From positions 49,476,001-49,540,000 of the forward strand of contig NC_088858.1 in the NCBI RefSeq assembly GCF_963853765.1: a stretch of 64,000 bases of DNA, in the 5' to 3' direction. Below are positions 60,436 to 61,053 of this stretch, in pieces. How positions within the stretch are numbered: position 1 is the stretch's first letter; every line of letters starts with the position of its first letter. The DNA is from Magallana gigas (taxonomy: Eukaryota). The translations under genes were made by a program, and so were the position numbers. The notes below the pieces were generated by a model. The model did no database searches, was not told the DNA's origin, and worked only from the letters and a program-made list of their open reading frames with translations.

Positions 60436-61053
60436 ATGGTAAATACTAAGGTGACCCCCAAGAAGCCTAAAGAGATATGTCCAGTGTGCTTCAAAGAAGT
60501 TGAAGGGAAAGATGCCTGGACAGCTCATGTTATAAAGTGTGCCGGTAGCATGTTGGTTTGTGAAAAATGTCGTGTGTCCTTTAAGAAAAAGGAATATATG
60601 GCAAAACACATGAGATTGAAACATGCAGAGATCGATCTGTCCAAGGAGTCTGAGAAAGACATTCCAGGTCCTAGCCGCTCACAGACGAATGATACTGACA
60701 GTGAAAGTGACTGGGATGAAGATCCAGAGGTACGGTTGGAGGAGACTCCAAGAAACGAGGAACTTCAAACTGAAACCAATGACCTGCTGGCTGGACGTAT
60801 CTACAGGAAACGCACTATGCCCAGCCCTGTGCAGGCTCCCAGAAAATTCATCTGCAGGACGGAAGTGCATCCTGTTCCAGGTGGCGTGACCGTTGAGACA
60901 CAGACAGATACTGTTGTAAGTGGTATGGCAGACAAGAGTACCCAGACAGCTGGATACCGGAAGCGAGTAAAGGAGGTTACCATAACCAAGTATCATGAGA
61001 ACGGCAGAAGCGTTGAGAACATTGTGGAGAGAGAGGAGTTTTACAATATGTAA
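60436..61053 (+). CDS. Retrotransposon accessory ORF2: C2HC + C2H2 zinc fingers, acidic tract, two TQT motifs (205 aa)
   Basis: Intact ORF inside the element. C15-X2-C-X12-H-X3-C and C42-X2-C-X12-H-X4-H; DTDSESDWDED; RIYRKR; VETQT and DKSTQT. Preceded by a TTTTTCAG acceptor ending at 60428. Confidence 0.88.
   Translation: MVNTKVTPKKPKEICPVCFKEVEGKDAWTAHVIKCAGSMLVCEKCRVSFKKKEYMAKHMRLKHAEIDLSKESEKDIPGPSRSQTNDTDSESDWDEDPEVRLEETPRNEELQTETNDLLAGRIYRKRTMPSPVQAPRKFICRTEVHPVPGGVTVETQTDTVVSGMADKSTQTAGYRKRVKEVTITKYHENGRSVENIVEREEFYNM

Follow-up and report, generated by a model that had tools for sequence, protein, structure and literature searches.

A zinc-finger accessory gene with predicted LC8-binding motifs and a histone H3-tail-like N-terminus in Gypsy retrotransposons of bivalves

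The window analysed here, a stretch of 64,000 nt from the Magallana gigas genome, contains a complete Gypsy element (Table 1). Its long terminal repeats (LTRs), target-site duplication, primer-binding site, polypurine tract and PR-RT-RH-IN domain order place it in Ty3/Gypsy, and with its identical LTRs the element is both intact and young. We take its primer-binding site to be tRNA-Leu-like. The 5' LTR has a TATA-like box near 54785, which is a putative promoter, a 13-bp direct repeat at 54678 and, at 54860, the sole GTRAG donor candidate of the leader, which may act as a splice donor. An earlier note had placed a 205-aa ORF, here termed ORF2, in the env slot of an intact element and had described C2HC and C2H2 fingers, an acidic tract and basic patches in it; we recover each of these at the same place. 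That note missed four further features of the gene: the H3-tail-like N-terminus, the splice acceptor, the R-K-x-T-x-P motif and the C-terminal hairpin.

Table 1. Features of the Gypsy element and of its accessory gene ORF2 (positions in the window)
Feature	Position	Strand	Remarks
Left target-site duplication, ATAT	54660..54663	.	Right copy at 61948-61951
5' LTR, 622 bp	54664..55285	+	Identical to 3' LTR, 0 mismatches
Primer-binding site	55291..55309	+	
gag-pol, single 1630-aa frame	55354..60246	+	gag, zinc knuckle, protease, RT, RNase H, integrase; Gypsy order
Predicted splice acceptor, pyrimidine tract and CAG	60412..60428	+	7 nt ahead of ATG
Accessory ORF2, 205 aa	60436..61053	+	Starts 190 nt past pol stop
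H3-tail-like N-terminal motif M-x-x-T-K-x-T-x-(R)-K	60436..60465	+	Fixed to initiator Met
Zinc finger 1, C2HC, aa 15-35	60478..60540	+	
Zinc finger 2, C2H2, aa 42-63	60559..60624	+	
Acidic tract with conserved W..DP motif	60691..60732	+	
Basic motif R-K-x-T-x-P	60796..60822	+	
LC8-type motif 1, aa 151-158	60886..60909	+	Variable site
LC8-type motif 2, aa 165-172	60928..60951	+	Conserved site
Predicted C-terminal beta hairpin, aa 175-204	60958..61047	+	One basic, one acidic strand
Purine-rich tract ahead of 3' LTR	61305..61323	+	
3' LTR	61326..61947	+	0 mismatches against 5' LTR

A 31-nt poly(A) run lies between pol and ORF2 (60353-60383), a tandem array of 21-nt units lies a little to the left of the element (53376-54048), and the element splits a degenerate repeat into two related halves (54312-54418 and 61949-62055, 79% over 107 nt). 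Farther left, on the minus strand at 48738-52173, three ORFs resemble by eye the exons of one host membrane-protein gene.

AlphaFold2, supplied with 62 sequences, predicts two confident fingers at aa 11-62 of ORF2 (block pLDDT 92-96), a stretch without secondary structure at aa 63-174 (block pLDDT 49-79), which thus places the LC8-type motifs in a disordered region, and a beta hairpin at aa 175-204 (block pLDDT 73-89). The Pfam zf-C2H2 model matches the C2H2 finger at E=2.6e-5 and 24.8 bits, slightly below its cut-off of 25.2. Other searches returned little beyond the fingers: in the PDB these matched generic C2H2 proteins only and the C-terminal 60 aa had no relative (one match, E=0.75), Foldseek gave nothing at E<=0.001, and the ESM Atlas gave generic zinc-finger clusters only, with recognition under the reliable mark. 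No transmembrane segment was found, the highest 19-residue hydropathy being 0.75, which agrees with the earlier note; no env family appeared in the Pfam search, and the pairing of signal peptide and transmembrane segment that marks an envelope protein is lacking.

For comparisons across the family we gathered 111 candidate relatives, dropped 40 as partial and kept 71 full-length sequences, which clustering at <50% identity reduced to 39; one profile search was swamped by poly-finger proteins, and only its 41 single-stretch new matches were used. Among these 39 relatives, finger 2 has K or R at helix position -1 in 38 and R or K at +6 in 36, with +2 and +3 variable in the pattern of base-reading fingers. 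These basic base-reading positions count in favour of the mechanism proposed below. The W/Y..[DE]P[GE] pattern of the acidic tract is matched in 26 of the 39 and R-K-x-T-x-P is present in 32; the latter we take to be a possible nuclear localisation signal, kinase site or 14-3-3 site.

The M. gigas genome yields 60 matches to ORF2, with identities from 26 to 100%. Fifty of these loci were fetched, and pol lies upstream on the same strand in 45, gag or protease in 4 that are internally deleted copies, while the remaining locus overlaps a pol-bearing one; in metagenomes, all four ORF2 loci lie behind pol. Named relatives come from Saccostrea, Ostrea, Magallana, Pinctada, Pecten, Argopecten, Mizuhopecten and Mytilus, and no other animal phylum occurs among the named records, most matches being unnamed. 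The family spans oysters, scallops and mussels, and stands behind Gypsy gag-pol wherever checked. One relative is filed under a bacterial metagenome-assembled genome and is likely host DNA. Small counts within families give a dN/dS of 0.13-0.44, and in comparisons between families synonymous sites have reached saturation (pS 0.75-0.93) and pN is 0.30-0.40; judged by these substitution patterns, ORF2 is under purifying selection. The linkage to Gypsy pol and the dN/dS below 1 that the earlier note had proposed as checks have thus both been borne out, and we are nearly certain that this is a genuine gene, kept under selection and in linkage with gag-pol.

Retention of ORF2 in sister copies, on which the earlier note had also staked its proposal, held good in part, with the 60 own-genome matches on one side and losses on the other. 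Two related families with intact gag-pol carry no ORF2, and five copies (L067, L069, L076, L077 and L084, compared with L039) have in common a ~690-nt deletion that takes most of the gene, two of them keeping intact gag-pol. Because such families and deletion copies exist, ORF2 is not needed in cis. The own-genome families were placed by a quick integrase-only tree, from which five chosen rows were excluded as too short. A swap of U3 accompanying the loss of ORF2 was considered and rejected, the 84% stretch being mostly indels.

Several family members depart from the common form. P0129 has the same N-terminal half with another C-terminus that is a second finger pair, presumably Ikaros/Hunchback-like, for which a search showed generic finger pairs only; P0099, P0168, P0187, P0200 and P0206 again share the N-terminal half and end in another domain without assigned identity. 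Five members (P0029, P0039, P0091, P0140 and P0169) are publicly annotated as host transcription factors, and labels found on copies of the family include ‘RE1-silencing transcription factor-like’ and ‘zinc finger protein 407-like’. In the family of L095-L098 and L146 there are up to three TQ-type sites and no clear acceptor. In L096-L098 the end of pol and ORF2 share one frame, and three internally deleted copies (L037:3317-6307, L041:3226-6201 and P0149) have gag-protease fused in frame to ORF2 sequence that includes the TQT site.

These in-frame arrangements, to pol in one set of copies and to gag-protease in the other, could be read as the mark of a particle or integration helper, in which LC8 would tie the particle to dynein, or ORF2 would tether integrase to chromatin; LC8 is indeed a dynein subunit that many viral proteins bind (extracts of PMC6607443). 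Yet the gag fusions are internally deleted copies, fusion removes the free N-terminus that an H3-like tail would need, and LC8 mostly dimerises its clients (extracts of PMC5963919). We hold this helper role to be very improbable, and nothing in the present analyses points to the particle trafficking that the earlier note had offered as one option.

The predicted acceptor just ahead of the ORF2 start codon is a conserved feature: a pyrimidine tract and AG within 20 nt of the ATG occur in 17 of 20 families, as compared to 97 of 1025 control ATGs. From this conservation, we consider it highly probable that ORF2 is expressed from an mRNA spliced to the acceptor before its ATG. Raw reads cover the element very thinly; the spliced joint is absent both from 48 raw reads of four runs (36, 10, 0 and 2 reads) and from the contigs of four runs, a coverage too sparse or too unsuitable in kind to speak against splicing.

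A conserved acceptor implies that the genomic RNA keeps an intron, and this favours a Rev/CERV-like factor, namely a protein made from the spliced mRNA, with fingers and a basic motif to bind unspliced genomic RNA and with LC8 as its means of oligomerising, that would promote export of this RNA from the nucleus. A precedent exists in CERV of Cer1, a spliced, phosphorylated and oligomeric accessory protein with an RNA-export job (extracts of PMC10309623), and such a factor would suit the finding that ORF2-less families have little sequence between pol and LTR. Against it, Pfam, PDB and fold searches revealed no CERV-domain similarity, ORF2-deleted copies with intact pol exist, and the most conserved segment of the protein, its N-terminus in H3 register, is left unexplained. 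We therefore regard an export role as improbable, if less so than the helper role.

The two TQT motifs that the earlier note had reported lie at 60898-60906 and 60940-60948, 14 aa apart. Across the family TQT is the commonest tripeptide of the tail, occurring in 17 of 39 relatives (shuffled mean 1.55, maximum 8 in 2000 shuffles), a count biased by the presence of TQT in the profile that gathered them; it occurs in the N-terminal half of none of the 39. D-x-x-TQT is found in 10 of 39 relatives against a shuffled mean of 0.08, and a wider anchor pattern in 28 of 39 by the motif statistics (shuffled 6.5), the site counts for the wide pattern being one in 20 relatives, two or more in 9 and none in 10. 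As a control for the bias, 60 loci were picked by their integrase and the ORFs called with a profile that ends ahead of the TQT region, and 14 of the 16 long ORFs among them, from about six families and two other ORF types, have an anchor. The conserved unit is a single site, usually 34-37 residues from the end and directly before the hairpin, and Q170 of motif 2 is invariant in alignment A1.

The sequence around the anchors fits LC8 binding as well. Among 41 anchors, D stands at -4 in 19 and D or E at +2 in 21, with small residues at -2, in agreement with published LC8 flanks (extracts of PMC6607443). Both sites of this ORF2 have a TQT-type anchor with Q at 0 and, as described for LC8 partners, a polar residue at -4, a large one at -3, a non-aromatic one at -2 and no proline before the anchor (extracts of PMC6607443). 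The DKSTQT hexamer of site 2 is that of the validated BCL2L11 site in Table 1 of the same source (PMC6607443). Site 1 is the less sure of the two, being similar to OFD1, which is listed as a binder, and also to PRSS36, which is listed as a non-binder (extracts of PMC6607443). A complex model of four host LC8 chains with two of ORF2(146-205) scored 0.50 as compared to 0.01 for the best control, with one of three runs scoring 0.16, at least 54% of contacts common to the runs and partner pLDDT of at least 43. We further take DKSTQT to be the LC8 site of the rabies P protein. Of 78 solved pairs 51 reach the score mark of this model, as do 2 of 108 mismatched pairs, and scores of 0.60 or less among passes came from 5 of the 78 solved pairs and from all 4 passing mismatches; moreover, complexes like this one are already solved, and the pass may reflect those known structures. 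The model thus gives weak support for binding.

Taken with the motif evidence, we think it very likely that LC8 dimers bind the ORF2 TQT motifs. For the earlier note's claim that ORF2 recruits LC8, this means that the motifs, kept across deeply diverged families, stand with weak model support, although they are not universal. Its reliance on TQT conservation likewise survives for the excess over shuffled tails and for the flanks, and not for the 10 of 39 relatives that lack an anchor or for tandem sites, which are in the minority (9 of 39).

The best-kept columns of the family lie at its very start, a stretch that was also picked automatically as search word in the locus search. One of the 39 relatives, without a usable Met, was left out of the comparison with host histone H3; among the 38 representatives (numbering after Met), T3 is matched in 33, K4 in 36, T6 in 34, R8 in 22 and K9 in 26, with R2 and Q5 matched in none and A7 in 2. 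Residue 1 is small (V, P, A, T or S) in all 38 and is V in this copy. Position 2 is N here and mostly N or K among the representatives, and an R at this position is present in L095-L097. At least four of nine H3 identities occur in 29 of 38 representatives; among 145,809 windows taken from poly-finger proteins of the host, 178 reach this level. In the 564-Mb genome a strict DNA pattern for an H3 start occurs at 30 places, 29 of them H3 genes and one an ORF2; this lone non-histone match belongs to a distant ORF2 family, and in the family of L095-L098 and L146 the ORF2 start is identical to H3 at as many as 8 of 9 residues after Met. The distance of the motif from Met is fixed even though the distance to the first Cys ranges between 10 and 23, as would be expected if a free N-terminus is read. 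Relatives without TQT also keep the motif, which makes it a more fundamental trait of the family than the LC8 site.

Other explanations of this motif deserve weight. It might serve only for localisation, or as a T-P-x-K site of CDK/H1 type, on a plain LC8-bound zinc-finger factor, with no mimicry, a reading that touches the tail step only. Proline occupies position 7 after Met (8 counting Met) in 23 of 38 representatives, R2 is absent, and on the family matrix a histone H1 11-mer scores like H3 (9.7 and 9.4, with H3 far below the family, whose median is about 24). On the other side, K5 (36 of 38) and T4 (33 of 38), counting Met, are better kept than the proline and fixed to Met, and in one family 8 of the first 9 post-Met residues agree with H3. 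We find this plainer reading somewhat doubtful.

Combining these features, we propose that ORF2 would be a spliced, nuclear, LC8-paired zinc-finger chromatin regulator that displays H3-like tails and favours expression of its element, a proposal to which we give an even chance. After translation from the spliced message, two chains would be bound in parallel at their TQT motifs by LC8 dimers, so that their C-terminal hairpins come together. The two-finger pair, too short alone, would gain avidity as a dimer and read DNA of its own LTR or nascent RNA, a step that we favour with modest confidence. Removal of Met would leave free N-terminal tails that engage or decoy host readers and writers of H3K4 and H3K9, which seems to us neither likely nor unlikely. 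The acidic W-DP motif and the R-K-x-T-x-P phospho-site could add host-binding and timing signals, and the net effect would be to favour element expression; the transactivation or counter-silencing suggested in the earlier note stays conjectural. No ORF2 binding site was identified in the LTR; the LTR direct repeats were considered and rejected for that part, as ORF2-less families also have LTR repeats by eye. In ASCIZ, activity drops as LC8 occupancy rises (extracts of PMC5963919), which bears against the activating direction assumed here. A bolder form, in which LC8-paired finger chains dock on the element as a mock nucleosome tail and their twin H3-like tails divert the host H3K4/H3K9 machinery, is speculative and in our estimate rather unlikely.

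The same tail could also serve the opposite end. As a self-limiting repressor, ORF2 would use its unmodified H3-like tail to hook NuRD or LSD1-type corepressors to the LTR and so cap copy number. Unmethylated H3 N-terminal mimics on zinc-finger factors do bind NuRD (extracts of PMC8166343), PICTS silencing is driven by LC8 dimerisation (extracts of PMC7861614), and the very low read coverage of the element and the spread of deletion copies are in keeping with such a cap. However, the R2 of the mimic rule is missing in this copy, and a pure self-repressor kept across bivalve orders would be harder to select for. We consider this reading decidedly unlikely, a little below the export role and above the helper role, and retain the regulator that favours its element's expression.

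Distant Gypsy families of the same genome, with integrases 36-44% identical, have other 3' genes that likewise consist of fingers, linker and C-terminal module. In L103:1333-2568 (-), also L100 and L108, N-terminal fingers are joined to a C-terminal BTB/POZ domain (Pfam BTB_2, E=2e-18), for which ESM Atlas matches were all under 0.9. L112:1129-2172 (-) and L102:3748-4698 (+) have fingers, one or two TQT and a C-terminus that by eye is coiled-coil-like, and L110:3264-4127 (+), L107 and L104 have fingers, a conserved domain without assigned identity and two C-terminal TQT-type sites. These genes lack the H3-like start, and their likeness to ORF2 may not go beyond generic fingers. Their make-up suggests a shared requirement for joining short finger pairs into oligomers.

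Only a handful of accessory proteins from animal LTR retrotransposons have an assigned function, and the persistence of these elements in the face of silencing calls for explanation. The ORF2 family is old, widespread in farmed bivalves and present in young intact elements; it makes cheap peptide-level predictions (binding to LC8 and to H3 readers), and the natural ORF2-less sister families are a built-in comparison. If the bolder form of the proposal is true, an animal LTR retrotransposon would have an anti-silencing factor that joins histone mimicry to the LC8 hub that flies use for transposon silencing, and ORF2 would be one of a wider kit of accessory genes pairing zinc fingers with an oligomeriser (LC8, BTB or coiled coil). 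Many copies, moreover, are annotated as host genes, and transcription-factor counts in bivalves are inflated by them.

The earlier note knew of no such gene in Gypsy elements, and we likewise found no description of ORF2 in the main texts of the open full-text literature, although an annotation outside it may exist. In the accessible parts of the literature on LC8, TQT and retrotransposons there is no element-encoded protein; in those of the mollusc surveys PMC6238403 and PMC10294476, and of PMC13524379 and PMC6338049, zinc is unmentioned, and those of PMC12440569 mention gag fingers only. Non-env genes in the env slot are already known, from CERV and the bdelloid ORF3s. Like ORF2, CERV of the C. 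elegans element Cer1 is a non-env accessory gene of an animal Gypsy element, and its spliced mRNA, nuclear location, phospho-regulation and oligomeric state are traits predicted for ORF2, but its domains differ (H, M and G, with a Cys loop), and RNA export, demonstrated for CERV, would hold for ORF2 by analogy only (extracts of PMC10309623, a paper with 0 mentions of dynein or LC8). The ORF3s of bdelloid LTR elements (env, GDSL, DEDDy, coiled-coil and TM types) are, like ORF2, swappable non-env genes in the env slot; they have spliced messages, are gained and lost, and occur in Penelope-like elements too, and none in the main text of the source is zinc-finger, histone-like or LC8-binding, with 0 mentions of zinc or histone there (PMC5408684, in part).

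LC8-bound finger proteins, LC8 in fly silencing and H3 N-terminal mimics are known on the host side. ASCIZ/ATMIN resembles ORF2 in placing zinc fingers at the N-terminus and, in a disordered tail after them, TQT sites, which in ASCIZ bind LC8, but it is a host gene with many sites, whereas in ORF2 two fingers and one to three sites are combined with an H3-like start and a hairpin (extracts of PMC5963919). The earlier note's picture of a miniature ASCIZ-like regulator thus reduces to an analogy of architecture, there being no ASCIZ/ATMIN among the named matches to ORF2, mostly one site per protein and no multivalent array. Host H3 tail mimics (H3TMs), which are often zinc-finger chromatin proteins, have a small first residue that allows Met removal and a lysine 4 at a fixed place, as does ORF2, but their rule (iM-Z-R-X-K) requires R2, which is N in this copy, and ORF2 adds T3, T6, R8 and K9 (extracts of PMC8166343, a paper with 0 mentions of transposons). 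Because R2 is absent, this copy is not an H3TM member; it may still work like an H3 mimic. Panoramix and the PICTS-SFiNX complex use TQT motifs and LC8 dimerisation, as ORF2 is predicted to do, in the chromatin control of transposons, but they form a silencing complex of the fly host, whereas in ORF2 the motif is on the transposon's side (extracts of PMC7861614 and PMC7919418).
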